Shown piece after piece: positions 5,335-62,995 of a stretch of 64,000 nt of DNA. Below the pieces are notes generated by a model. It saw only the letters and a program-made list of their open reading frames with translations, had not been told where the DNA came from and did no database searches. The stretch is from Parcubacteria group bacterium. Its GTDB lineage: Bacteria; Patescibacteriota; Patescibacteriia; UBA2169. Location: contig JACOYR010000006.1 in the NCBI GenBank assembly GCA_016181765.1, positions 31,664 through 95,663 of the forward strand, written 5' to 3'. The position numbers and the translations under genes were made by a program. Within the stretch, counting starts at the first letter, position 1, and the number at the start of each line of letters is the position of its first letter.

Positions 5335-6981
5335 ATGCTAGACTCACCCTATGAAACACGCGCCCGCGCTCGCACTCGCCGCATTCCTGCTGGCGCTCTA
5401 GAGGACAGCGGAGAGTTTGTGGCGGCGAGCCACACGCTCTCCATCCCGCACCCGTCCGGGTATCCGACCTATCTTCTGACCGCAAAACTCGCCTCACTGG
5501 TTCCGTTTTTGCCTACGGTTGTTGAACGCGTCAATTTCGTGTCCGCCATCTGGACCATCGCGGCCGCGGTGCTCTTGTACTATGCCCTGGCAGGGCTGTT
5601 TGCGAGCCGCCTCATCGCCTCTTCGCTTGCGCTCCTCTTCGCCACAAGCCCAATGGTCTGGCAACAGGCAACCTATGCGGAAGTGTATTCATTGAACACG
5701 TTTTTTTTCGTCTTGTTGCTCTGGTCAGGGCTCTGCTACGTTAAACGTAAGACCAACAAACGGCTGTGCCTGTTTTTCTTTGTGTACGGATTAAGCCTCA
5801 CCAACCACTTTTTGCCGCTTGTTCTCTCGCCGCTCATTATCATCTGGCTCCTCAAGGAGCGTCCTTTGACCAAAAGCATAGTACTCTACCTCAAAGCATT
5901 CAGCGCATGGCTTCTCGGGCTTGTCCCTTATCTCTACATTCCCATCCGGAACCAGATGGACCCCGCATTCTCCTGGTTCGGCGGCAACGCGGAAAAAATC
6001 CTCACTTACAATATCGCCTACGGCTGGCGCCTGAACGAACACACGCTCTCGTACCTCGCTGACGTTGCGCACCAGATGAACATAAGTTTCGGGATGCTCG
6101 GCATTGCCGCATTTGTTGCCGGGATCGGAGTGATGGTGCGCTACCGGCATCCGGCGCGCTTCTGGCTCCTCGCGGTACTCGCCCTGCTCTCCATTGGATT
6201 GGTGATTGTTTTGACAAACGGCAGGCCCTACGCCGAGTTTGAGAGCCAGTTCTACCAGACGCTCTATGTCCCCTTTCTCCTTATGTCGCTCCTGCCTATT
6301 GGATGGCTCCTGCAACAATTAGCACAGAGCACGTATAGGCTCATCATCTTCTACACTACTCTGCTTGCGATTATGGCGTGGCCCGCAATTGACCTCGGCA
6401 ATCGGTTCCTAAAAAATGACCGTTCGGACTACGTGCTCATGGAAAATTACACGCGGGGACTGCTTGAATCACTCCCCGCAGACGGGACGCTGTACAGCCA
6501 CCATGACCACATTCTAAATGACACGCTGGTGTTTGGCCTGGCGTACCAGCAGTATGTGGCCGGAGTGCGGGATGATGTTGCCATTTATTCTCTGACGCCG
6601 GTATTCCCTCCGCCGGACGATTTTCCGCTTGGTGAAAATCGGAAACAAAACTATGAGCCAATACTCAAGCAGTACCTTGATGAGCGCTACGCCCCAGAAG
6701 ACGTCAGCGCCACGTTTCCGCAACCACGGGACGGCATCCCTGCCACGGCCCCGGAAAACTATGCCGCAGACAACTTGTACTTGCCGAGCGTGAATGACAG
6801 CCTCTACCACCGCTCCCTTGTGGCCAAGTACTACTATGACCTCGCCGCGTATACGTACTCCCGAAACAACCTCCCGAGCGGCCAGCGCTTCTTGGTGCAG
6901 GCCATTGAATATGATCCGGACCAGTTCAGCGATTACTACTACCAAACCTTAGCCATGCGCAGCTACTATTTTGACAATTGA
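5335..6981 (+). CDS. polytopic membrane protein, DUF2723/TMEM260-like (putative GT-C type glycosyltransferase)
   Basis: SHTLSIPHPSGYPTYLL motif near N-terminus followed by multiple hydrophobic segments; N-terminus may be incomplete. Confidence 0.55.
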   Translation: MLDSPYETRARARTRRIPAGALEDSGEFVAASHTLSIPHPSGYPTYLLTAKLASLVPFLPTVVERVNFVSAIWTIAAAVLLYYALAGLFASRLIASSLALLFATSPMVWQQATYAEVYSLNTFFFVLLLWSGLCYVKRKTNKRLCLFFFVYGLSLTNHFLPLVLSPLIIIWLLKERPLTKSIVLYLKAFSAWLLGLVPYLYIPIRNQMDPAFSWFGGNAEKILTYNIAYGWRLNEHTLSYLADVAHQMNISFGMLGIAAFVAGIGVMVRYRHPARFWLLAVLALLSIGLVIVLTNGRPYAEFESQFYQTLYVPFLLMSLLPIGWLLQQLAQSTYRLIIFYTTLLAIMAWPAIDLGNRFLKNDRSDYVLMENYTRGLLESLPADGTLYSHHDHILNDTLVFGLAYQQYVAGVRDDVAIYSLTPVFPPPDDFPLGENRKQNYEPILKQYLDERYAPEDVSATFPQPRDGIPATAPENYAADNLYLPSVNDSLYHRSLVAKYYYDLAAYTYSRNNLPSGQRFLVQAIEYDPDQFSDYYYQTLAMRSYYFDN

Positions 6982-7020
6982 CGGGATGGTAAGATGATAC
7001 TAAAATGGTTTTGTCTTTGC

Positions 7021-7147
7021 GGTTTCTCGCTTGGGCCCGAGCGTAGCGAGGGTTAAGCGAGAAACCGAGAGGAGTAGGCGGATGAAGGGTGGAGCGGGCG
7101 AGCGCAAGCTCGCACGCGCAACCCGCAATCCGACTACGACGAGACGA
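7021..7147 (+). ncRNA. candidate structured RNA element (copy A) immediately 5' of tRNA-Gly; unassigned family
   Basis: 10-bp hairpin ggtttctcgc/gcgagaaacc enclosing conserved loop ttgggc...gttaa; conserved gagaggagtaggcg and ccgactacgacga motifs; internal GCAA-tetraloop hairpin; family of 4 with covarying stems. Confidence 0.45.
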
Positions 7148-7221
7148 GCGGGTATCGTATAGTGGCAATACCACAGCTTTCCAAGCTGTTGCCGGGGGTT
7201 CGATTCCCCCTACCCGCTCCA
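7148..7221 (+). tRNA. tRNA-Gly (anticodon TCC)
   Basis: Acceptor gcgggta/tacccgc, anticodon stem acagc/gctgt, loop tttccaa, T-arm ggggg-ttcgatt-ccccc, CCA encoded. Confidence 0.9.
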
Positions 7222-19914: not shown

Positions 19915-20004
19915 TGGCGGAGAGGGTGGGATTTGAACCCACGAGGACTTTGCAGCCCTACCGCTTTTCGAGAGCGGCGCTTTCAACCACTCAGCCACCT
20001 CTCC
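19915..20004 (-). tRNA. tRNA-Ser (anticodon CGA), class II with long variable arm
   Basis: Reverse complement ggagaggtggctgagtggttgaaagcg-ccgct-ctcgaaa-agcgg-tagggctgcaaagtcctc-gtggg-ttcaaat-cccac-cctctcc-g-cca. Confidence 0.85.
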
Positions 20005-20122
20005 TCGTCACAGTCGGACTCTAGCTTCCGTGTCCGAGTGAAACTCGGCCACTTCAGCTGTCGTCCGCCTTTTCCTCACAGTTTTGCGCTTAACCGACCT
20101 GCGGTCGGCCCAAGCGCAAAAC
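20005..20122 (-). ncRNA. candidate structured RNA element (copy D) immediately 5' of tRNA-Ser on minus strand
   Basis: Reverse complement reads ttttgcgc-ttgggccgaccgcaggtcggttaa-gcgcaaaa-ctgtgaggaaaaggcggacga...gctagagtccgactgtgacga then tRNA; same architecture as copies A-C. Confidence 0.45.
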
Positions 20123-20200
20123 TGAAAAAGACTACTGCAAGAATACTTAAAAAACCAAAAAAAAGCAACCCAAAACATGGACAAAAGAGCCGGATTATCA

Positions 20201-22457: not shown

Positions 22458-23720
22458 ATGCCGTACCTCCTGCCCATCGTAGCGCTGCTCGCACTGCTGG
22501 TTCCCGAACCCGCAGCAGCAGACTCCCTGCTCCGAATCTGCACCGCAACCGGCAACTGCGGGGTGTGCGATGTGGTGGCAACCGCAGTCACGCTCGGCAA
22601 GTGGCTCATTACCGGATCAGCCGGACTAGCCTTGGTGGTGATTGTGTGGGCATCAGTCGGGCTCGCAACGAGCGCCGGAAACCCGGAAAAAATAGGGGAA
22701 GCCAAAAAACAGGTCGTGTGGTCCGTGCTCGGAGTGGGATTGGTGTTCGCGGCGTTCTATTTGGTGATGTGGATTGTCATTGCGTTCGCAAACCCCTCCA
22801 ACCAGTTCAAGTACGCAAAAAATCCGTCCGATGCCGCGGTTGCCGAAACCGGAGGCTTGGCCGGTTTTCTGGGCGGGACCGCATGGTGGAACCTGTGCAG
22901 CGAGGCTGATTTGCGCGCAAACGGCGACCGAGCAAGGTCCGCGGACAATATAACCGCGGACTGCAAGTACTGGGGAGACGGCACGCCCTGCAAGACAAAC
23001 CGCAAGAGCATCTGCTTGAGCGGAACGTGCACGCCAGTCGGAGACAGCAAAGTTCAGGCGAGCATAACCGCGCTCGGCGGATACCCCCTTCCAACAGACC
23101 CGTCCGCGTGCGACTATGTGGCCGCGGTTGACCGCGTGTTTGAAAACTACTCGTGCCAGCCGAATGCCGCATGCAATCCGGAAAAAATAGAAAAGGGGTT
23201 CTGCCCTCCCGGAGGCACAGTGTGCTGCGAGCCGTCCACCTTCACCCCGCGGGTGCGGCCAACCGCGGCCCCAGAGGTTTTGGTTCCAACGGCGCCCGGA
23301 GTACCCGGAGCTGGAGGTGATGAAATGGCAATCCGCACGACACTCGGAAATGCGGGCATAGAAGTCAATAAAGCCCCTTGTCCGGACATCCTTACCTCAA
23401 CCGACTGCACGTCAGTCGCCGGACTGTCGCAGAGCACGGTTAATAAACTGATTGAAGCCCACACCACATACAACGGGCGCATCTACATTACCGGAGGGAC
23501 CGAGCGAGGCCCCCATGCCCAAAACACCACGCACGGCAATCAGAACGTGGTTGATATCCGCAACAAGCAAGAGGCGCGAGATGCCCTGGATCAGATGGGG
23601 CTCGTGCGCATGACCTCGTTTTCAAACGGCTATGCGAGGGGCTCCAACTGGTACATCTGCGACACCAACGGCCAGGCTGTAAGCTGTGGTACTGCAAGCC
23701 ACTTACACGTAGAATTTTAA
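22458..23720 (+). CDS. pilin-like (TrbC/VirB2-type) N-terminal domain fused to Cys-rich linker and C-terminal M15/VanY-like zinc peptidase-like domain
   Basis: N-terminus ...VTLGKWLITGSAGLALVVIVWASVGLATSAGNPEKIGEAKKQVVWSVLGVGLVFAAFYLV resembles the downstream pilin paralogs; C-terminus has ...ITGGTERGPHAQNTTHGNQNVVDI and terminal ASHLHVEF (SxHxxGxAxD-like and HxH motifs). Confidence 0.5.
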   Translation: MPYLLPIVALLALLVPEPAAADSLLRICTATGNCGVCDVVATAVTLGKWLITGSAGLALVVIVWASVGLATSAGNPEKIGEAKKQVVWSVLGVGLVFAAFYLVMWIVIAFANPSNQFKYAKNPSDAAVAETGGLAGFLGGTAWWNLCSEADLRANGDRARSADNITADCKYWGDGTPCKTNRKSICLSGTCTPVGDSKVQASITALGGYPLPTDPSACDYVAAVDRVFENYSCQPNAACNPEKIEKGFCPPGGTVCCEPSTFTPRVRPTAAPEVLVPTAPGVPGAGGDEMAIRTTLGNAGIEVNKAPCPDILTSTDCTSVAGLSQSTVNKLIEAHTTYNGRIYITGGTERGPHAQNTTHGNQNVVDIRNKQEARDALDQMGLVRMTSFSNGYARGSNWYICDTNGQAVSCGTASHLHVEF

Positions 23721-23737
23721 CCAACCCTAGAGAGCCT

Positions 23738-24088
23738 ATGATCACAAAACTATTCTTCACCAGCCTCGCTATCCTGCTCCCCGCGGCACAAGCCCTGGCA
23801 CAGAACAGCTACGGCAGTGCCGATCTCAATCCGCTCGGAAGAATTGAGGGCCCGCAGGAGCTCTATGGCCGCTTTTTGCAATTTTTCCTCGGGTTCGTTG
23901 GGGTCGGCGCGCTCGGGTACTTCATCATCGGCGGCATTATACTCTTGATGTCCCAAGGGAACCCTGAAAAGGTAAAAATGGGCAAGGACACGCTGGTCTG
24001 GGCAATCATCGGCATGTTCGTGGCGTTCGCAAGCTACATCATCCTGCGGTTCGTGCTGGAGATCATCATCACCCCGACCGGCGCGTAG
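23738..24088 (+). CDS. pilin-like small membrane protein P1 (TrbC/VirB2-type architecture)
   Basis: Signal peptide, short variable region, then two-TM core ...GGIILLMSQGNPEKVKMGKDTLVWAIIGMFVAFASYII. Confidence 0.6.
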   Translation: MITKLFFTSLAILLPAAQALAQNSYGSADLNPLGRIEGPQELYGRFLQFFLGFVGVGALGYFIIGGIILLMSQGNPEKVKMGKDTLVWAIIGMFVAFASYIILRFVLEIIITPTGA

Positions 24089-24174
24089 TTATCAACAGAG
24101 TGATTTTGCAAAAAATGCCGCAGTGTTGTATAATTCATGCATCATAAACCAATTATTTATTAAACTTTGATACT

Positions 24175-24696
24175 ATGATTACGCGAACAACAAAACTGGC
24201 ATGGAAAATGATTTTGAGCGGGTTGTTTTCCGCAAGCTTCCTGGCGCTCGCGCTTGTTCCGGCTACAACGTCTGCCGCCGTAGGTGACGACTGCACGGAC
24301 ACCAAATCGTGCCCCACCGGGGGAGAAGTGTGCATCCGCAACGCTAATGACGGAACTCCCGGAGATGCAACTGATGCCTTTTCTTTCGTCTGCACCACCC
24401 CGCAGGCCACCCAGTATGGTTTAGGCGAGTTTACTGATGTCGGTCTCGGCCAGACCCAGGACCTCAAGGGCTCTATCGCGAACATCATCAACATCATCCT
24501 CGGATTCCTCGGGATTGTGGCGGTCATCATCATCCTGGCCGGCGGATTCAAGTGGATGACAGCCGGAGGCAACGAGGACAAGGTCGGCGAATCGCGGCAG
24601 ATGATCATCCAGGGCATCATCGGATTGGTGGTGGTGTTTGCGGCCTGGGCAATCGCGAGCTTCGTGGTTTCCAACCTCCAATCAGCAACCACCTAG
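24175..24696 (+). CDS. pilin-like protein P2 with Cys-rich N-terminal ectodomain
   Basis: Conserved core IINIILGFLGIVAVIIILAGGFKWMTAGGNEDKVGESRQMIIQGIIGLVVVFAAWAIASFVV. Confidence 0.65.
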   Translation: MITRTTKLAWKMILSGLFSASFLALALVPATTSAAVGDDCTDTKSCPTGGEVCIRNANDGTPGDATDAFSFVCTTPQATQYGLGEFTDVGLGQTQDLKGSIANIINIILGFLGIVAVIIILAGGFKWMTAGGNEDKVGESRQMIIQGIIGLVVVFAAWAIASFVVSNLQSATT

Positions 24697-24727
24697 CCGC
24701 CTCCCCCCTCTCTCCTGCCTATGCACA

Positions 24728-24763
24728 ACCCCCGCCAAATCAGCGGGGGTTGTTTGTTGCGTC
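24728..24763 (+). terminator. rho-independent terminator after P2
   Basis: caacccccgc-caaatca-gcgggggttg + tttgttg; followed by TGGTATACT box at 24777-24785 before P3. Confidence 0.5.
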
Positions 24764-24814
24764 CAAATCCTGTTTTTGGTATACTATACACACTGTTATT
24801 ATCCACAAAGGTCT

Positions 24815-25528
24815 ATGATGAAAACTATAAGCATTTTGGCGTCTGGGGCCGCATTTTCAATCCTGCTCCTCCTTGCGCCATCGGCAACAAATGCCGCTCC
24901 TGTTGATGAAGATGGGGTCTGTCAGCTTTTTCCGGTTACCGCAGACGAAGCATGCGGGCCGGGTTTGGTATGCGAACAAACGCCGACAAGCGCCGCGGGC
25001 CAAGGAGTGTGTTGTGCGCCGGGGTCAGACAACTGCCGTTTCGGGTTGGGAGAACAATCCACGTTCACAACCCTGGGTTTGGGCAAAAATGATGACCTTA
25101 AGGGGACTCTGGCGACCATTATCAATATAGCGCTCGGGTTCCTTGGCATTATTGCCGTGATTATCGTGATGTTCGGGGGGTTCAAGTGGATGACTGCGGC
25201 TGGAAACGAGGAGCAGGTGGGAGAGGCGCGGAAGCTGATCGTGGGGGGCGTGGTCGGACTGCTGGTGATATTCATGGCATGGGCAATCGCGAGCTTTGTG
25301 GTATTATTACGCCTCGCTATACAACCATATGCACCACACCATGACGCCACGCGCCGTTCAAGCCGCAAAATGCATGCTTGCCACGAGCATGCTGGTTCTG
25401 CTCGCTGTTGCAATCGCGGCACCTTCGTCAACTGGCGCGCAAGTTGCGGATCCCCGGGCTGCGGACCAGCAGTATGGCCTGGGAAGCGCCAGCAGCTTCA
25501 CAAATGTCGGCCTGGGCAAAGAGGATGA
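24815..25528 (+). CDS. pilin-like protein P3; conserved end is at about 25303 but no stop codon follows, so the ORF reads into the next gene in +1 frame
   Basis: Core ...IINIALGFLGIIAVIIVMFGGFKWMTAAGNEEQVGEARKLIVGGVVGLLVIFMAWAIASFVV then non-pilin-like tail; 3' 210 nt nearly identical to P4. Confidence 0.55.
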   Translation: MMKTISILASGAAFSILLLLAPSATNAAPVDEDGVCQLFPVTADEACGPGLVCEQTPTSAAGQGVCCAPGSDNCRFGLGEQSTFTTLGLGKNDDLKGTLATIINIALGFLGIIAVIIVMFGGFKWMTAAGNEEQVGEARKLIVGGVVGLLVIFMAWAIASFVVLLRLAIQPYAPHHDATRRSSRKMHACHEHAGSARCCNRGTFVNWRASCGSPGCGPAVWPGKRQQLHKCRPGQRG

Positions 25529-25757
25529 CCTTAAGGGGACTCTAGCGACCGTCATCAACATAGCGCTCGGGTTCCTTGGCATCATTGCCGTGATTATCGT
25601 GATGTTCGGAGGGTTCAAGTGGATGACTGCGGCAGGCAACGAGGAGCAGGTGGGAGAGGCGCGGAAGCTGATCGTGGGGGGCGTGGTCGGACTGCTGGTG
25701 ATATTCATGGCATGGGCAATCGCGAGCTTTGTGGTAAGCTCCTCGGCTCGGATATGA
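25341..25757 (+). CDS. pilin-like protein P4
   Basis: Signal peptide MTPRAVQAAKCMLATSMLVLLAVAIAAPSSTGA; same core as P3; stop codon TGA lies inside repeat R2. Confidence 0.65.
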   Translation: MTPRAVQAAKCMLATSMLVLLAVAIAAPSSTGAQVADPRAADQQYGLGSASSFTNVGLGKEDDLKGTLATVINIALGFLGIIAVIIVMFGGFKWMTAAGNEEQVGEARKLIVGGVVGLLVIFMAWAIASFVVSSSARI

Positions 25758-25804
25758 AAAAGAATACTTTTTCATATCACTCGCTCTACGTCGCTAATAA
25801 AACA
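25737..25804. repeat. hairpin repeat R2 (copy of R1) between P4 and P5
   Basis: agctcctcggctcgg-gatatgaaaaag-aata-ctttttcatatc-actcgctctacgtcgctaataaaaca; supplies P4 stop and ends 5 nt before P5 ATG. Confidence 0.7.
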
Positions 25805-25809
25805 ATGCT

Positions 25810-26208
25810 ATGCCGATAGTTAAATCGTTTTCCTTAAGAATCAACCTGATCGTCGCGGCGGGCATGCTCGCATTCGCGATTCTCGCGCCGGTTCCGGCGC
25901 TCGCCCAAACCGACCCGTTCGGCGTGGAAGATGCGGCCAGGATCAACGTGGGCGAAGAGCGGGACCTTAAATTTGCCATTGCGAACATCGTGAACGTAGT
26001 ACTCGGATTTTTGGGAATCCTTGCGGTCATCATCATCATGTATGCGGGATTCAAATGGATGACCGCGTCCGGAAACGAAGAGCAGGTGGGCGAAGCCCGA
26101 AAAATGCTCTTGCAGGCGGTCATCGGCTTAATCATCATCATGGGAGCCTGGGTCATTATAAACTTCGTCACCGGAGAATTCGGCAGAGCGGTCCAGCTTG
26201 AAAACTAA
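25810..26208 (+). CDS. pilin-like protein P5
   Basis: Core NIVNVVLGFLGILAVIIIMYAGFKWMTASGNEEQVGEARKMLLQAVIGLIIIMGAWVIINFV. Confidence 0.65.
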   Translation: MPIVKSFSLRINLIVAAGMLAFAILAPVPALAQTDPFGVEDAARINVGEERDLKFAIANIVNVVLGFLGILAVIIIMYAGFKWMTASGNEEQVGEARKMLLQAVIGLIIIMGAWVIINFVTGEFGRAVQLEN

Positions 26209-26236
26209 CCGGCCCCGGGCCGCTTACGCAACACGT

Positions 26237-26905
26237 ATGACCGCACGCCGCACTCTCATCGTAGCACTCCTCGTTTCCGGATTGGCGGGATTCGCGGCAA
26301 GCCCGCACCCGGCATTTGCCCAGCGCAGCGCCGCCGGGGAAAACGCGCTCAATTTTTTGGATGCGACCGCGGAAAAGGGCGGGCTCTCAAGCGGCATCAA
26401 AAACGCGGGATTCAGCAGTGAGGACGCGGTGCTCGGCATTGTGGGCAACATCATCAACGTCATCCTTGGATTCGTGGGAATCATCTTCTTTGTCCAGATG
26501 TTCTACGCGGGCTTCAGGTGGATGTCGTCCGGCGGCAACGAGGAGGTCGTAACCGAAGCCAGGCAGACCATCAAGAGCGCAGTCATCGGCATTGCGGTGG
26601 TGTTTGCCGCGTTCGTGGTTACGAACTTTACCTTGAATCAAATCGCAAGCATCACTGGGCCCACGCGGCCATCCGGGTTGCCCCCTGAAGATGAGAGCTA
26701 TGACCCAAGTTTAGATGCCCCGGGCGGAGACTTAAATTTCGGCGAACTACCTCCGCCGCTTGGGACATGCATCTATCCAAAAAGCGGCGAATGTGATGCC
26801 GGAAACACCGGGTGGACTGACCTGCAAAGTGATGTATCTGAAAATGCTTGCATGACTCTCGCTGCTTCGGCTTGTGGCGACCCTGATTTGCACGACTGGT
26901 ATTAA
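26237..26905 (+). CDS. pilin-like protein P6 with C-terminal Cys-rich tail (alternative start 26198)
   Basis: Signal peptide MTARRTLIVALLVSGLAGFAASPHPAFA; core GFVGIIFFVQMFYAGFRWMSSGGNEEVVTEARQTIKSAVIGIAVVFAAFVV; tail with 5 Cys. Confidence 0.6.
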   Translation: MTARRTLIVALLVSGLAGFAASPHPAFAQRSAAGENALNFLDATAEKGGLSSGIKNAGFSSEDAVLGIVGNIINVILGFVGIIFFVQMFYAGFRWMSSGGNEEVVTEARQTIKSAVIGIAVVFAAFVVTNFTLNQIASITGPTRPSGLPPEDESYDPSLDAPGGDLNFGELPPPLGTCIYPKSGECDAGNTGWTDLQSDVSENACMTLAASACGDPDLHDWY

Positions 26906-26911
26906 TATACT

Positions 26912-27340
26912 ATGAAATACGCCGCTCTAATATCACTATTCTTGGCAACCCTGTCTATAACTCTGTTTTCTTTTCAAGTCGTGGCTCATGCCCAAAATAC
27001 TGATACCAAACTCGCGAGCGCGGTTGGCGATGCCCGTGGAAAACTCAATGCCATTGGCTCAATCACAGGCTTGGGACGGGTTGACGTTTCAACTGACGCT
27101 GGTCTGTACGAAAAAATCGCGGCAGTCATCAATATCCTGCTCGGGTTTGCGGGCGTAATTGCGACCATCTATATAATTGTTGCGGGAATCCAGTGGATTA
27201 CGGCAAGCGGCAATGAGGAACAGGTTACCGAAGCGCGCGGAAACATAAGGAACGCGGTCATCGGCTTGGTGGTTATATTCCTCGCGTTTGTCATCACCAA
27301 TTTCGTCACCAAATCACTCATTGACGTAATCGGCGGCTGA
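26912..27340 (+). CDS. pilin-like protein P7
   Basis: Core INILLGFAGVIATIYIIVAGIQWITASGNEEQVTEARGNIRNAVIGLVVIFLAFVITNFV. Confidence 0.65.
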   Translation: MKYAALISLFLATLSITLFSFQVVAHAQNTDTKLASAVGDARGKLNAIGSITGLGRVDVSTDAGLYEKIAAVINILLGFAGVIATIYIIVAGIQWITASGNEEQVTEARGNIRNAVIGLVVIFLAFVITNFVTKSLIDVIGG

Positions 27341-27356
27341 CGCTAAAAACTTCCCT

Positions 27357-27989
27357 ATGAAAATCTTTCTCACAGCCATTGCCTTAACAGGCCTCCTCGC
27401 AGCCGCGGCTCCGGCGCACGCGGTATCCGGCGTCAACCAGCTCAAGAACAACCTCGGCATCATCGGAACCGAAACCGGGCTCGGCACCCAAGGGGACTCA
27501 AGTCTTCCGGAAAAAATCGCGGCAATTGTGAACATAGCGCTCGGGTTTGTAGCGCTCATCGGGGTGATCATGATCATCTACGCGGGCTTTAAGTGGATGA
27601 CAGCCGGCGGCAACGAGGAGCAAATAAAAGAAGCCAAAGGCCATATCCGCAATGCGGTCATCGGCATTGTCATTATTATGCTCGCGTTCGTAATTGTCAA
27701 TTTTACCGTGAACAAGCTCTCGGAAACCGTGGGTGTGGGCGAGGGCGGAGGAGGAGGGGGAAACGTCATCAGCGGACTTTGTGAATTTGATGTTGGCGGC
27801 GGGCTTATGTTCTGCGTACCTCGGTCAGAATCAGAGTGCCAAACCCTTGGGGGAACCTATAACGCGCAGTGCGAAAAGCAGACTTACTGCAGGTGCGCAA
27901 GCGGATGCGGGGCAAACAACTGCCTTATTATGACCGAAAATGCATGCGAAAGGAAGAGTGGAGCGCTTAGCGACGCGCCCTGTAATTGA
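27357..27989 (+). CDS. pilin-like protein P8 with Gly-rich linker and 10-Cys C-terminal module
   Basis: Core IVNIALGFVALIGVIMIIYAGFKWMTAGGNEEQIKEAKGHIRNAVIGIVIIMLAFVIVNF; GEGGGGGGN linker; CEFDVGGGLMFCVPRSESECQTLGGTYNAQCEKQTYCRCASGCGANNCLIMTENACE. Confidence 0.65.
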   Translation: MKIFLTAIALTGLLAAAAPAHAVSGVNQLKNNLGIIGTETGLGTQGDSSLPEKIAAIVNIALGFVALIGVIMIIYAGFKWMTAGGNEEQIKEAKGHIRNAVIGIVIIMLAFVIVNFTVNKLSETVGVGEGGGGGGNVISGLCEFDVGGGLMFCVPRSESECQTLGGTYNAQCEKQTYCRCASGCGANNCLIMTENACERKSGALSDAPCN

Positions 27990-47311: not shown

Positions 47312-47452
47312 ATGTCAACAAAACGAACCTACCAGCCGAAAAAAAAGAAGCGCGCGCGGGTGCACGGATTCCGGAAGCGCTCCGCCAAACCAGGAGGCCG
47401 CAACGTGCTCCAAAGGCGCAGGGCAAAAGGAAGAAAGCGGCTGACGGTTTAA
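47312..47452 (+). CDS. rpmH: 50S ribosomal protein L34
   Basis: [46 protein letters not shown]. Confidence 0.85.
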
Positions 47453-47456
47453 ACCC

Positions 47457-47798
47457 ATGCTCGCAGCCAGCAACCGCCTTGCCAAACGGTCCGACATTCT
47501 CGCCGTGCACAAACGCGGCAGGTCTTTTTTTGTCGGGAACCTCGGTGTGCGGCTCGCAAAGAACAGCCTCAAGGTTTCGCGCTTCACCATCATCACGTCC
47601 TTAAAAATTTCCAAGCGGTCCACGGAGCGCAACAAGCTCAAGCGCCGCTTGAGGGAAATCCTCCGCAGGGAAATCATGCCCAGGGTTGCCCCGGGTTTTG
47701 ACGGTATTATCCTCACTAGAAAACCGCTCCTGGAAATGGCATTCGCTGAACTGCGGACGCTCACCATCAGCCTGTTCAAAAAAACACGCCTCATATGA
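47457..47798 (+). CDS. rnpA: RNase P protein component
   Basis: LAKRSDILAVHKRGRSFFVGNLGV...KLKRRLREILRRE; conserved rpmH-rnpA order. Confidence 0.8.
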   Translation: MLAASNRLAKRSDILAVHKRGRSFFVGNLGVRLAKNSLKVSRFTIITSLKISKRSTERNKLKRRLREILRREIMPRVAPGFDGIILTRKPLLEMAFAELRTLTISLFKKTRLI

Positions 47799-48028
47799 AA
47801 CGCCTGGCGCTCGCGCTCATCAAGCTCTACCAAAAGACGCTCTCCCCGGACCACGGGCTCGTACAGGGATTTTTCCCGCATGGCGCGTGCAAGTACCGCC
47901 CCACGTGTTCAGAATACGCATATGACGCAATCCAATCATTTGGTATACTGAAGGGGTCTGCTGTGGGGGCAAAACGAATTGTGCGCTGCCACCCCTGGGC
48001 GCAAGGCGGCTATGATCCAGTACAATAA
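47795..48028 (+). CDS. yidD: membrane protein insertion efficiency factor YidD
   Basis: LIKLYQKTLSP...CKYRPTCSEYAYDAIQSFG...GAKRIVRCHPW. Confidence 0.8.
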   Translation: MKRLALALIKLYQKTLSPDHGLVQGFFPHGACKYRPTCSEYAYDAIQSFGILKGSAVGAKRIVRCHPWAQGGYDPVQ

Positions 48029-48031
48029 CCT

Positions 48032-48763
48032 ATGAATCCGTTTGTCATCCTGTTCTACCAACCGATTTTGAACCTCCTGGTCTGGCTGCACAACATTATT
48101 CCGGGCGATGATTTCGGGTGGGCAATCATCGGCCTCACGGTGCTCATAAAAATCATCTTGTTGCCGCTGTCCGCAAAATCCCTGCGCTCGCAAAAATCCC
48201 TGCAGGAGCTCCAGCCCAAAGTTGATGAGCTGCGAAAAAAATACAAAGACGACCGGGAACGCCAGGGCCGGGAGCTCATGGAGCTCTACCGGAAGGAAAA
48301 AGTGAGCCCATTCTCCTCGTGCCTGCCGCTCCTGGTCCAACTGCCGTTCTTGCTCGCCATCTTCCAGGTCCTGCGGGATGAGGTTGCAACCGGCAACCTT
48401 GACCTGCTCTACTCCTTTGTCGCTATTCCCGAAACAATCAACACCGTGTTCCTGGGAATCGTAAACCTAGAATCGCCGAGCATCATAATCGCGCTCGCGG
48501 CCGGCGCACTGCAGTTCTGGCAGACCCGGATGCTCGTGCACAAGCGCCAGCCCTTGGTTCCGGGGGCAGCGGACGAAAGTATGACCAGCATGATGAACAA
48601 GCAGATGATGTACATTGCCCCGGTCATCACAGTCGTCTTCGGCGCAACCCTGCCCGGAGGCTTGACGCTGTACTGGGCCGTTAACACGCTCACCACGCTC
48701 ATCCAGCAGATTGCGGTCTTCCGCAAGCACGCGGGCGCTGTACCCGCGGCACGCGCGGCATAA
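48032..48763 (+). CDS. yidC: membrane protein insertase YidC (short form)
   Basis: YidC/Oxa1 core helices; position after rnpA-yidD. Confidence 0.85.
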   Translation: MNPFVILFYQPILNLLVWLHNIIPGDDFGWAIIGLTVLIKIILLPLSAKSLRSQKSLQELQPKVDELRKKYKDDRERQGRELMELYRKEKVSPFSSCLPLLVQLPFLLAIFQVLRDEVATGNLDLLYSFVAIPETINTVFLGIVNLESPSIIIALAAGALQFWQTRMLVHKRQPLVPGAADESMTSMMNKQMMYIAPVITVVFGATLPGGLTLYWAVNTLTTLIQQIAVFRKHAGAVPAARAA

Positions 48764-50317: not shown

Positions 50318-50451
50318 AATAGTGCCCCTTTTAATGATTATAGGTTCCTATAGTATACTAAAATGGGCATGCATTGTAAAAATAACGCTATTACGGTATA
50401 ATTCGCCTATATTTTGCTCGGATGCGGAACCCCAAACCCCAACTCTGACGC

Positions 50452-50528: not shown

Positions 50529-50609
50529 TAATTTGTCAAAATTGTCAACTTTTTCATGATGGGTTGAACAAAATTTACATGGGTTGAACAAAAATTATGA
50601 ATCTGACGC

Positions 50610-50685: not shown

Positions 50686-50731
50686 GACAAATTGTTCAGT
50701 GTTAAACTTTAAAAATACCTCTTTCTTACAA

Positions 50732-50847
50732 ATTTTCTCTTGGGCTCACCGCAGGCGAGTTAAGAGAAAATTTGAGAGGAGTAGGCGTGCGGAGGGTGTA
50801 GTCAGTGCTGTAAGGCACAGAAGAAACCCGCAGCGCGACTACGACGA
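50732..50847 (+). ncRNA. candidate structured RNA element (copy B) immediately 5' of tRNA-Ala(CGC)
   Basis: attttctc-ttgggctcaccgcaggcgagttaa-gagaaaat-ttgagaggagtaggcg...gcgactacgacga then tRNA. Confidence 0.45.
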
Positions 50848-50923
50848 GGGCCTGTAGCTCAGTTGGTAGAGCGCCACATTCGCATTGTGGAGGCCAGGAG
50901 TTCAAATCTCCTCAGGTCCACCA
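50848..50923 (+). tRNA. tRNA-Ala (anticodon CGC)
   Basis: G3:U70 pair; anticodon stem ccaca/tgtgg, loop ttcgcat; CCA encoded. Confidence 0.85.
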
Positions 50924-62515: not shown

Positions 62516-62770
62516 ATGCCGCAACGCATCACGGTAAAAGTTACGCCACGCTCAAAAGAGAACAAAATTATCGGGCTTAAAGACGGCATCTTGCGCGTGC
62601 GCATTACCGCGCCCCCGGTTGAGGGCAAGGCCAACAGGGCCCTGGTTGAGTTTTTGGCGGACGCGTGGGGAGTTTCCAGGCAAAGCATCCGCATTGTCCG
62701 GGGCGAAACATCGCGTGAGAAAGTTTTGGAAGTTCCGGACAGCATACCTTTACAAAAAGGCATGATTTGA
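62516..62770 (+). CDS. yggU: DUF167/YggU family protein
   Basis: ITVKVTPRSKENKIIGLKDGILRVRITAPPVEGKANRALVEFLAD. Confidence 0.7.
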   Translation: MPQRITVKVTPRSKENKIIGLKDGILRVRITAPPVEGKANRALVEFLADAWGVSRQSIRIVRGETSREKVLEVPDSIPLQKGMI

Positions 62771-62798
62771 TATACTTTTTTTGTCTTAAATATACAAA

Positions 62799-62914
62799 AT
62801 TTCCGTTGGGCTGAGCGAAGCGAAGTTAACGGAAATTTTGAGAGGAAGAGGCGGACGAAAGCCGAAGCAGGCTCGCGCAGTGAGCATGCGGAGGCTGTAG
62901 TCCGACTCTGACGA
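62799..62914 (+). ncRNA. candidate structured RNA element (copy C) 5' of a truncated tRNA-Gly-like sequence
   Basis: atttccg-ttgggctgagcgaagcgaagttaa-cggaaat-tttgagaggaagaggcggacgaaag...ggctgtagtccgactctgacga. Confidence 0.45.
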
Positions 62915-62985
62915 GCGGGTATCGTATAATGGCTATTATGCCACCTTGCCAAGGTGGAGATACGGGTTCAATTCCCGGCTACAGT
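62915..62985 (+). pseudogene. tRNA-Gly(GCC)-like sequence lacking the 3' acceptor strand and CCA (truncated or pseudo-tRNA)
   Basis: First 13 nt identical to tRNA-Gly(TCC) at 7148; anticodon arm ccacc-ttgccaa-ggtgg and T-arm acggg-ttcaatt-cccgg intact; after cccgg comes ctacagtgatgg instead of tacccgc-t-cca. Confidence 0.5.
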
Positions 62986-62995
62986 GATGGTGCGT

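Follow-up and report, generated by a model that had tools for sequence, protein, structure and literature searches.

The window considered here is the whole of a 64,000-nt stretch of DNA from a Parcubacteria group bacterium (contig JACOYR010000006.1), in which a structured element of about 120 nt occurs four times, in each case in front of a tRNA gene or the remains of one. Coordinates are positions in this window, and L-numbers denote loci of relatives. An initial annotation, made from the letters alone, had located the four copies, had taken them for a structured RNA whose fold is under selection rather than for a protein-coding sequence or a simple DNA repeat, and had proposed that a covariance model be built from them. 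Such a model (R1) was built from the four copies and used to search the window and the DNA of relatives; an unfiltered search returned exactly these four copies in the 64 kb and no others, scoring 119-129 bits in the sense orientation, while nothing on the opposite strand exceeded 27 bits. The copies and the features that adjoin them are:

6978 to 7006, plus strand: sigma-70-like promoter, TTGACG-N17-TAAAAT (a consensus match only)
7018 to 7142, plus strand: element copy 1, 121 bits; minimum free energy (MFE) -72.7 kcal/mol, z -8.5
7020-7030 with 7057-7067, plus strand: helix P1 of copy 1
7031-7035 and 7052-7056, plus strand: UUGGG and GUUAA of copy 1
7068-7070, 7071 to 7140 and 7141-7142, plus strand: A-G-A linker, rod P2 and G-A tail of copy 1
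7143 to 7147, plus strand: second GACGA, a 5-nt tail duplicate that separates copy 1 from tRNA-Gly-TCC
7148 to 7221, plus strand: tRNA-Gly-TCC, with CCA encoded (ARAGORN, Rfam)
19915 to 20004, minus strand: tRNA-Ser-CGA, 0 nt 3' of copy 4
20005 to 20126, minus strand: element copy 4, with P1 from C20124; 125 bits, z -6.3
50727 to 50847, plus strand: element copy 2, 119 bits, z -6.6
50729-50739 with 50764-50774, 50775-50777, and 50778 to 50845, plus strand: P1, linker and rod P2 of copy 2
50848 to 50923, plus strand: tRNA-Ala-CGC, 0 nt 3' of copy 2
62749 to 62776, plus strand: sigma-70-like promoter, TTTACA-N16-(TG)TATACT, 5' of copy 3 (a consensus match only)
62793 to 62914, plus strand: element copy 3, with P1 from C62795; 129 bits, z -6.3
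62915 to 62986, plus strand: truncated tRNA-Gly-GCC directly 3' of copy 3, 32 bits
62996 to 63080, plus strand: tRNA-Leu-TAA (ARAGORN)

An intact tRNA gene adjoins three of the copies, and the gap between element and gene is 0 nt at tRNA-Ala-CGC and tRNA-Ser-CGA according to both ARAGORN and Rfam; the remaining copy adjoins a truncated tRNA-Gly fused to tRNA-Leu. Several details of the first description have been revised. Copy 1 ends at 7142 and not at 7147, the last five positions being the duplicated tail (L118, L053 and L128 carry a tail duplicated in the same manner), and the promoter in front of this copy has a predicted transcription start about 5-7 nt 5' of it. Moreover, what had been called a tRNA-Gly-GCC-like sequence behind copy 3 is a degraded tRNA-Gly-GCC, in which the 3' acceptor strand is gone, eight acceptor positions are left unpaired, and the remainder is fused 9 nt before tRNA-Leu-TAA. 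In L051 and L118 an intact Gly-GCC gene occupies this place and a second element stands 5' of Leu-TAA; judging from the sequence, the window's tRNA-Leu-TAA, which has its own element in relatives, is now within the transcription unit of copy 3. The fusion points to a deletion in the window lineage, with which this Gly-GCC gene was possibly lost.

In each window copy the MFE fold coincides with the consensus, with z-scores between -6.3 and -8.5, and RNAalifold finds 38 pairs among the four copies, 21 of them with compensatory changes. The element begins with a conserved U-A, followed by the 11-bp helix P1, which has a C-G pair at its base and is rich in A and U; above P1 come four invariant pairs (U-A, U-A, G.U and G.U, formed by UUGG and UUAA) together with a bulged G, and hairpin 1 is completed by a short capped stem, usually with tandem G.A/A.G pairs. 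Three nucleotides, A-N-A, link hairpin 1 to a long rod, which is built, from its base, of a G-C pair, tandem G.A/A.G, 4 bp, an invariant G.A, 5 bp, two 3x3 GNA/GNA loops lying 4 bp apart, 3 bp, another G.A and, at its far end, a capped stem that varies. On its 3' side the rod finishes with C-G-N, and the tRNA follows. About 45 positions are invariant or nearly so, and they lie in loops and junctions. The outer stem of the initial annotation is 11 bp long and begins 1-3 nt further upstream, at C7020, C50729, C62795 and C20124; its ‘conserved loop’ is an internal loop, UUGGG opposite GUUAA, with a capped inner hairpin, and the purine-rich stretch and the 3' tail, rather than being single-stranded, are opposite strands of one helix.

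Selection on this fold is evident in the wider family as well. In the alignment fitted to the model, 96.3% of cells are paired and 30 of the 38 pairs have changed on both sides; none of 500 shuffles reached the observed pairing, and slid controls were 34-49% paired. An independent MAFFT alignment of 64 copies, evaluated with a hand-drawn structure, gave 96.5% paired and double changes at 29 of 39 pairs. The fold is strand-specific: two of the pairs are invariant G.U, and cells with G.U or U.G number 24 versus 13 with A.C or C.A. Helix P2a, at the base of the rod, spans positions -3 to about -16 relative to the tRNA and shows covariation; its 3' strand is the tail YGACGN, where CGACGA and UGACGA are as frequent as CUGACGA.

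One covariation lies outside the helices. The last nucleotide of the element, which in copies abutting a tRNA is position -1, is A, C or U and never G in all 62 copies with a canonical tail, and it covaries with the middle base of the linker (G/A in 31 copies, A/C in 13, A/U in 12, with six exceptions; Fisher p = 2.6e-11). This is the top covarying pair among distant, non-adjacent columns outside helices, and it is seen within single genomes too. Because linker and -1 covary and the last nucleotide is never G, positions -2 and -1 probably pair non-canonically with the linker, so that the helix would extend right up to the cleavage site. No other pseudoknot or loop-loop covariation emerged from the covariation scan. 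Kissing between apical loops was considered and rejected, as the loop sequences (GUAC, GNRA, GCGNAGC) differ between copies; pairing of -1 with the discriminator base is possible in 21 of 45 cases and is neither avoided nor preferred.

The claim that the element belongs to no known family has stood. Rfam 15 at gathering score gave matches to tRNA only; a search of the entire window at E up to 0.1 placed nothing on the element, and with two copies searched at E up to 10 the best match over the element had 14 bits against thresholds of 43-50. Literature searches turned up no description of such an element, and two motif surveys of the Breaker laboratory make no mention of it. Several familiar classes can be dismissed on their defining features: a box C/D-like RNA, as the core is absent; a hammerhead, as the CUGANGA and GAAA cores are absent or misplaced; and RNase P RNA itself, which needs the P4 pseudoknot, CR-I/CR-V and at least some 200 nt, against about 120 nt and no pseudoknot covariation here. 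A T-box is rejected likewise, since UUGGG is invariant while N73 varies (A, G or U), the gap of 0 nt leaves no platform, and there is no Rfam match. The element does recall T-boxes in being a long, structured, tRNA-related leader with a conserved UGG bulge that could pair with CCA; T-boxes, however, precede mRNAs, bind tRNA in trans and end in a terminator or antiterminator, and the element's domain order is the reverse of theirs.

Beyond the window, a pattern scan of species-representative genomes returned mostly chance matches, among which R1 retained true copies in a few metagenome-assembled genomes (MAGs), and a tighter pattern applied to metagenome contigs gave 67 matches at 48 loci. From all sources 83 distinct copies, all from a few MAGs, were assembled. 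None was found in the 2.9 million viral contigs of IMG/VR, and a phage origin was rejected. Within a genome the copies are mostly 35-79% identical (per-genome maxima of 60-79% and means of 48-68%) and have kept the fold, which speaks for long-term selection and not for a recently active miniature inverted-repeat transposable element (MITE). One homogenised genome is different: pairs of copies that precede different tRNAs reach 95% identity there.

The MAGs that host the element bear discordant labels, namely ‘Gammaproteobacteria’, ‘Parcubacteria group’ and ‘bacterium CG10_46_32’. Two of them share synteny with the window, at 70-80% nucleotide identity; the closest named relatives of ribosomal protein S15 from one locus are CG10_46_32, Parcubacteria, Candidatus Komeilibacteria and Candidatus Buchananbacteria, and a further close S15 relative lies on a 433-kb contig labelled ‘Gammaproteobacteria’. 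A 23S fragment from the genome of that contig is only about 70% identical to E. coli. From these S15 relatives, the 23S divergence and the synteny with the window, we conclude that the clade belongs to the Candidate Phyla Radiation (CPR, or Patescibacteria), Parcubacteria-like and near Candidatus Komeilibacteria. The label of six MAGs filed as ‘uncultured Gammaproteobacteria bacterium’ is contradicted by the S15 relatives and the 23S fragment; these MAGs, which supplied L024, L051, L053, L062, L063, L068, L069, L079, L081, L092, L095, L099, L100, L113 and L114, are apparently mislabelled CPR bacteria of the Parcubacteria/Komeilibacteria kind. The window itself has, at 22458-27989, three open reading frames (ORFs) with type IV secretion pilin domains (PF18895), which together with pilT-like and TMEM260-like genes elsewhere in it make up a surface set typical of CPR episymbionts.

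Across the family, 58 of the 83 copies lie 0-6 nt before a sense tRNA, and these tRNAs represent 29 anticodons. The gap is 0 nt in 43 copies and -1 or 2-5 nt in 15, with a spacer of 2-5 nt in 13 of the 58; the 5-nt spacers are duplicated tails, which leave a GACGN-type tail next to +1. In about five further copies a tRNA sequence follows that is cut by the contig end or was not called. A 112-nt tRNA match at L092 6238-6349 and a tRNA-Met-like 5' half after the element at L148 823-860, with no full call, may be intron-containing tRNA genes, which have been reported for CPR bacteria. Over all loci with at least one copy, the window included, 55 of 92 tRNA genes carry the element; in the window, which was chosen independently of it, four of nine do. 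Where a tRNA lacks it, the leader is unrelated, save for a few remnants of deletions, and the GACGN tail is thus not a clade-wide leader motif. Many copies have sigma-70-like promoters, by consensus match, at a variable distance of about 5-40 nt upstream.

The initial annotation's statement that the element always ends at a tRNA thus holds inside the window but for only some 70-76% of copies in the wider family: the link to tRNA 5' ends is tight, and intact copies nevertheless occur elsewhere. Such copies were not foreseen in that description, which likewise did not anticipate that orthologous tRNAs gain or lose the element or that the linker contacts -1. Five intact copies converge on the 3' end of a tRNA gene and finish at the sequence complementary to its CCA. 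At L046 2288-2617, L047 4059-4383 and L141 6156-6551 tRNA genes lie between two inward-facing elements; the convergent ones make up a subfamily, marked by the tail AUGACYC and by complete pairing at the 3' end. Two copies abut start codons with the identical junction GACGA-U-AUG and no Shine-Dalgarno sequence, one before rpsO and the other before a small ORF in a pilus operon. Another, intact and at most 60% identical to its paralogues, sits between lexA and its terminator, in the 3' untranslated region (UTR). In addition, several copies stand upstream in tandem arrays and have decayed tails or are truncated, and isolated modules consisting of hairpin 1 only are also present.

Orthologous tRNA genes may carry a full element in one genome and a tail remnant in another, and the window offers two examples:

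50443 to 50451, plus strand: CTCTGACGC directly 5' of tRNA-Ala-GGC, the tail remnant of a deleted element
50603 to 50609, plus strand: CTGACGC directly 5' of tRNA-Arg-CCT, the tail remnant of a deleted element

The orthologue of tRNA-Ala-GGC in L062 and that of tRNA-Arg-CCT in L101 bear full elements, and the (CT)CTGACGC motif at the two window sites looks like the kept tail of deleted elements. Upstream of tRNA-Arg-CCT there is also a direct repeat, CATG(AT)GGGTTGAACAAAA, present twice in the window (50553-50600) and three times in CG10_46_32 (L101 1-110), where the repeat region also carries an inverted TTTGTTCAA. A 39-nt stretch of this region is 100% identical in genomes whose identity is about 70% elsewhere, and the repeat is a candidate protein-binding site.

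An element joined to the first nucleotide of a tRNA raises the question of how the 5' end of that tRNA is made. The window contains the gene for the protein subunit of RNase P:

47457 to 47798, plus strand: rnpA, RNase P protein subunit (PF00825, 64 bits, full length)

The gene order is rpmH-rnpA-yidD-yidC (47312-48763), and RnpA has the RNR motif; dnaN, ftsH, a gene for an S1-domain protein and gyrA lie near rnpA, consistent with a region near the replication origin. Because rnpA is present at full length, the organism almost certainly uses an RNA-based RNase P. No RNase P RNA was found in about 430 kb of clade DNA, a sample too small to tell. Pre-tRNA leaders are normally short, unconserved and unstructured, and bacterial RNase P normally prefers a single-stranded leader near the cleavage site. 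Designed leaders sequestered in a hairpin block RNase P cleavage until they are opened (Ender et al. 2022, PMC8925977), and the published circular CPR genomes all have RNase P RNAs, which are diverged and in two thirds of cases lack the CCA-binding UGG (PMC8172020).

The reading that we favour, with belief and doubt about evenly balanced, is that the element is a structured pre-tRNA leader module which is removed by RNase P and which controls or presents the cleavage site. Under this reading an ordinary promoter of the sigma-70 type, some 5-40 nt upstream, would transcribe the element as the 5' leader of a single pre-tRNA. The transcript would fold into hairpin 1, the A-N-A linker and the long rod of about 95 nt, interrupted by invariant G.A-type loops, with the 3' strand of the rod running to the tRNA and its last nucleotide, -1, touching the middle nucleotide of the linker. 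Cleavage by RNase P at +1 would then yield the mature 5' end of the tRNA and a leader whose 3' end is tucked into the junction. Gating would operate in cis: with leader positions -1 to about -13 held in a helix, just where RNase P prefers single-stranded RNA, the module would have to be opened or recognised before roughly half of the tRNA genes could yield mature 5' ends. A protein partner that reads the conserved loops is probable. Control of the cleavage site is favoured because the leader near the site is helical and some 45 loop and junction positions are nearly invariant. The initial annotation had listed a leader that directs processing among its candidate roles, and this would remain the best of them; an attenuator is unlikely, as element and tRNA leave no space for an expression platform and are not separated by a terminator, and self-cleavage has drawn no positive support.

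Several observations weigh against this interpretation. About 40% of the tRNA genes of the clade do without the element, and since orthologues carry either the full element or only a remnant, it is dispensable for the maturation of any given tRNA. Roughly 10% of the intact copies are not tRNA leaders (five convergent, two at start codons and one in the lexA 3' UTR), and these fit better with a module that is itself the selected product. The covariation scan, which was not a dedicated search for it, revealed no ligand- or protein-dependent alternative fold, and transcription, RNase P cleavage and the gating role are all steps that we infer. A bolder version, in which the leader helps actively to form the tRNA 5' end, is improbable; it might act as an RNase P switch, through recognition supplied in cis, or by catalysis of its own. 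For the second of these, the invariant UGG would, for example, bind the encoded CCA end and so replace the recognition lost by a reduced RNase P RNA.

The non-leader copies lead to a different explanation, which is unlikely though far from negligible: the functional product would be the module itself, an abundant and stable protein-binding RNA of about 120 nt, hitch-hiking on tRNA genes for their strong promoters and for the exact, protected 3' end that an RNase P cut at a tRNA or an antisense cloverleaf would provide. Intact copies that are no leaders would be accounted for, as a convergent copy still ends at an antisense tRNA that can fold as a cloverleaf and the 3' UTR copy at a terminator; the latter (L041) is old and still scores 113 bits. 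The last nucleotide, tied into the junction, would resist 3' exonucleases, the many invariant G.A-type loops suggest a protein partner, and the element is dispensable for individual tRNAs. The nearest parallel is MALAT1/mascRNA (and MEN-beta), where an RNA likewise abuts a tRNA-type cloverleaf, one RNase P cut makes both ends, and the 3' end of the upstream RNA is structurally protected, much as 58 copies of the element abut a sense and five an antisense tRNA. MALAT1, however, is eukaryotic, a single-copy long RNA before a tRNA mimic, whereas the element is bacterial, comes in dozens of copies of about 120 nt and precedes genuine tRNAs; there is no homology in sequence or structure, and cleavage of the element is presumed. 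In E. coli the leuZ 3' external transcribed spacer is a regulatory RNA cut from a tRNA precursor, and the element may similarly be a tRNA-processing by-product with a function of its own, but RNAs of the leuZ type are short single-locus fragments without an elaborate conserved fold or a multi-copy family. A trans-acting RNA, moreover, has no obvious need for 10 to more than 20 diverged copies per genome. The organism of the window has ordinary intrinsic terminators, so that 3' ends can be made without RNase P, the variable 5' extension leaves the 5' end of the module undefined, and the two ORF-linked copies have no RNase P site. It is also conceivable, if improbable, that the element is a selfish or domesticated repeat that targets the ends of tRNA genes, the fold serving its own propagation as RNA or single-stranded DNA. 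It is multi-copy, has been gained or lost at orthologous tRNAs, occurs in tandem arrays with truncated upstream members and as isolated hairpin-1 modules, and is found within an operon as well as in a 5' and a 3' UTR; the same end of the element faces either end of a tRNA gene, and one genome has the nearly identical copies mentioned above before different tRNAs. In these respects it resembles repetitive extragenic palindromic (REP) sequences and BIMEs, ERIC, Correia and other MITEs, which are multi-copy, intergenic, foldable and present or absent at orthologous sites, and sometimes co-transcribed with their neighbours. Unlike REPs and MITEs, it has old copies, some 45 invariant loop positions, a fixed orientation and a 0-nt junction to +1. 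The MITE that the initial annotation had named as the alternative is disfavoured further, for terminal inverted repeats are lacking (2.8 matches of the first 16 nt to the reverse complement of the last 16, versus 4.2 in shuffles), as are target-site duplications (1 of 76 at k = 3 and none at k of 4 or more). In most genomes the copies are old, at 35-79% identity, with the fold kept by compensatory changes; the loci inspected have no transposase, integrase or reverse transcriptase consistently nearby, the viral contigs hold no copies, and the host genomes are presumably streamlined, to judge from CPR biology.

That the leader makes the boundary by itself, through self-cleavage or a dedicated endonuclease acting at its own 3' end with RNase P bypassed, seems very unlikely. 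It would yield mature tRNA 5' ends and near-leaderless mRNAs, in keeping with the two independent ORF-linked copies that share GACGA-U-AUG without a Shine-Dalgarno sequence; position -1 is built into the fold and is never G, as at some ribozyme cleavage sites, and near-invariance at about 45 positions is typical of catalytic or ligand-binding RNAs. There is some likeness to a type I hammerhead, which also has two hairpins followed by a cleavage site leading into a third helix, with a non-G before the site (true of the element, though not diagnostic alone) and with CUGACGA in some copies. In the element, however, the acceptor stem takes the place of the third helix without leading back into the element, and no Rfam ribozyme matches even at E up to 10. 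The hammerhead-like CUGACGA varies (CGACGA, UGACGA) and is misplaced, no pseudoknot or long-range covariation accompanies that of linker and -1, rnpA is present in the window, and the 13 of 58 tRNA-linked copies with a 2-5 nt spacer would still need RNase P. We know of no small ribozyme that cuts at its own extreme 3' end whatever the +1 nucleotide. Least credible of all is a site acting at the DNA level, as folded single-stranded DNA of the attC or REP type, or an operator for S15. GTTAAGY fits the R' consensus of integron attC sites, GTTRRRY, and same-strand DNA hairpins are known to form G.T pairs too; but the partner is CTTGG, with G.U pairs, instead of RYYYAAC, the element lies 5' of tRNA genes, oriented as they are and behind promoters, and the loci inspected have no integron integrase or other integron context. 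In favour of an S15 operator, one copy (L109) stands directly 5' of rpsO; the element is absent from rpsO in three relatives (L171, L172 and L173), and a fourth (L169) has the hairpin-1 module only. The rpsO 5' UTR has a motif of its own, CTTGG..GATCG..CTCGG..CGCTTATTAT, which is distinct from the element and is a candidate S15 autoregulatory leader (L109 7250-7330, minus strand; L169 1570-1640; L171 1930-1990; L172 1935-1990). Between rpsO and pnp of CG10_46_32 there is also a gene for a 166-aa predicted nuclease with a NYN domain (PF01936; L169 2241-2741), not found there in three relatives.

To return to the favoured reading of a leader that controls or presents the RNase P cleavage site, its closest likeness is to the designed RNase P riboswitches, in which the leader near +1 is likewise held in a helix. 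These are synthetic, ligand-switched and provided with a defined alternative fold, and no natural counterpart of them is known to us. None of the nearest analogous systems shares the sequence or the architecture of the element. Its novelty is that of a processed leader RNA, if processed as we suppose, in an unprecedented form that is conserved, structured and fused to the tRNA.

CPR bacteria are not culturable alone, and their RNase P RNAs are unusually reduced. Here a whole clade of them has retained, at about half of its tRNA genes, an elaborate leader of some 120 nt that joins directly onto the first tRNA nucleotide, and its cells appear to treat many tRNA precursors in a way not previously described. 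Whichever explanation holds, the element represents a new RNA family with good support, ready for inclusion in Rfam, and offers a clean test system consisting of one RNA, one tRNA and one enzyme. If the module is released as a stable RNA, bacteria would have in it a counterpart to the RNase P-dependent biogenesis of non-coding RNA, and if it takes an active part in forming the 5' end, it would be the first natural RNA module for pre-tRNA maturation outside RNase P. A module that controls or assists cleavage would provide the first case in nature of regulated or assisted RNase P processing based on a leader, and would open a view of RNA processing in the CPR.

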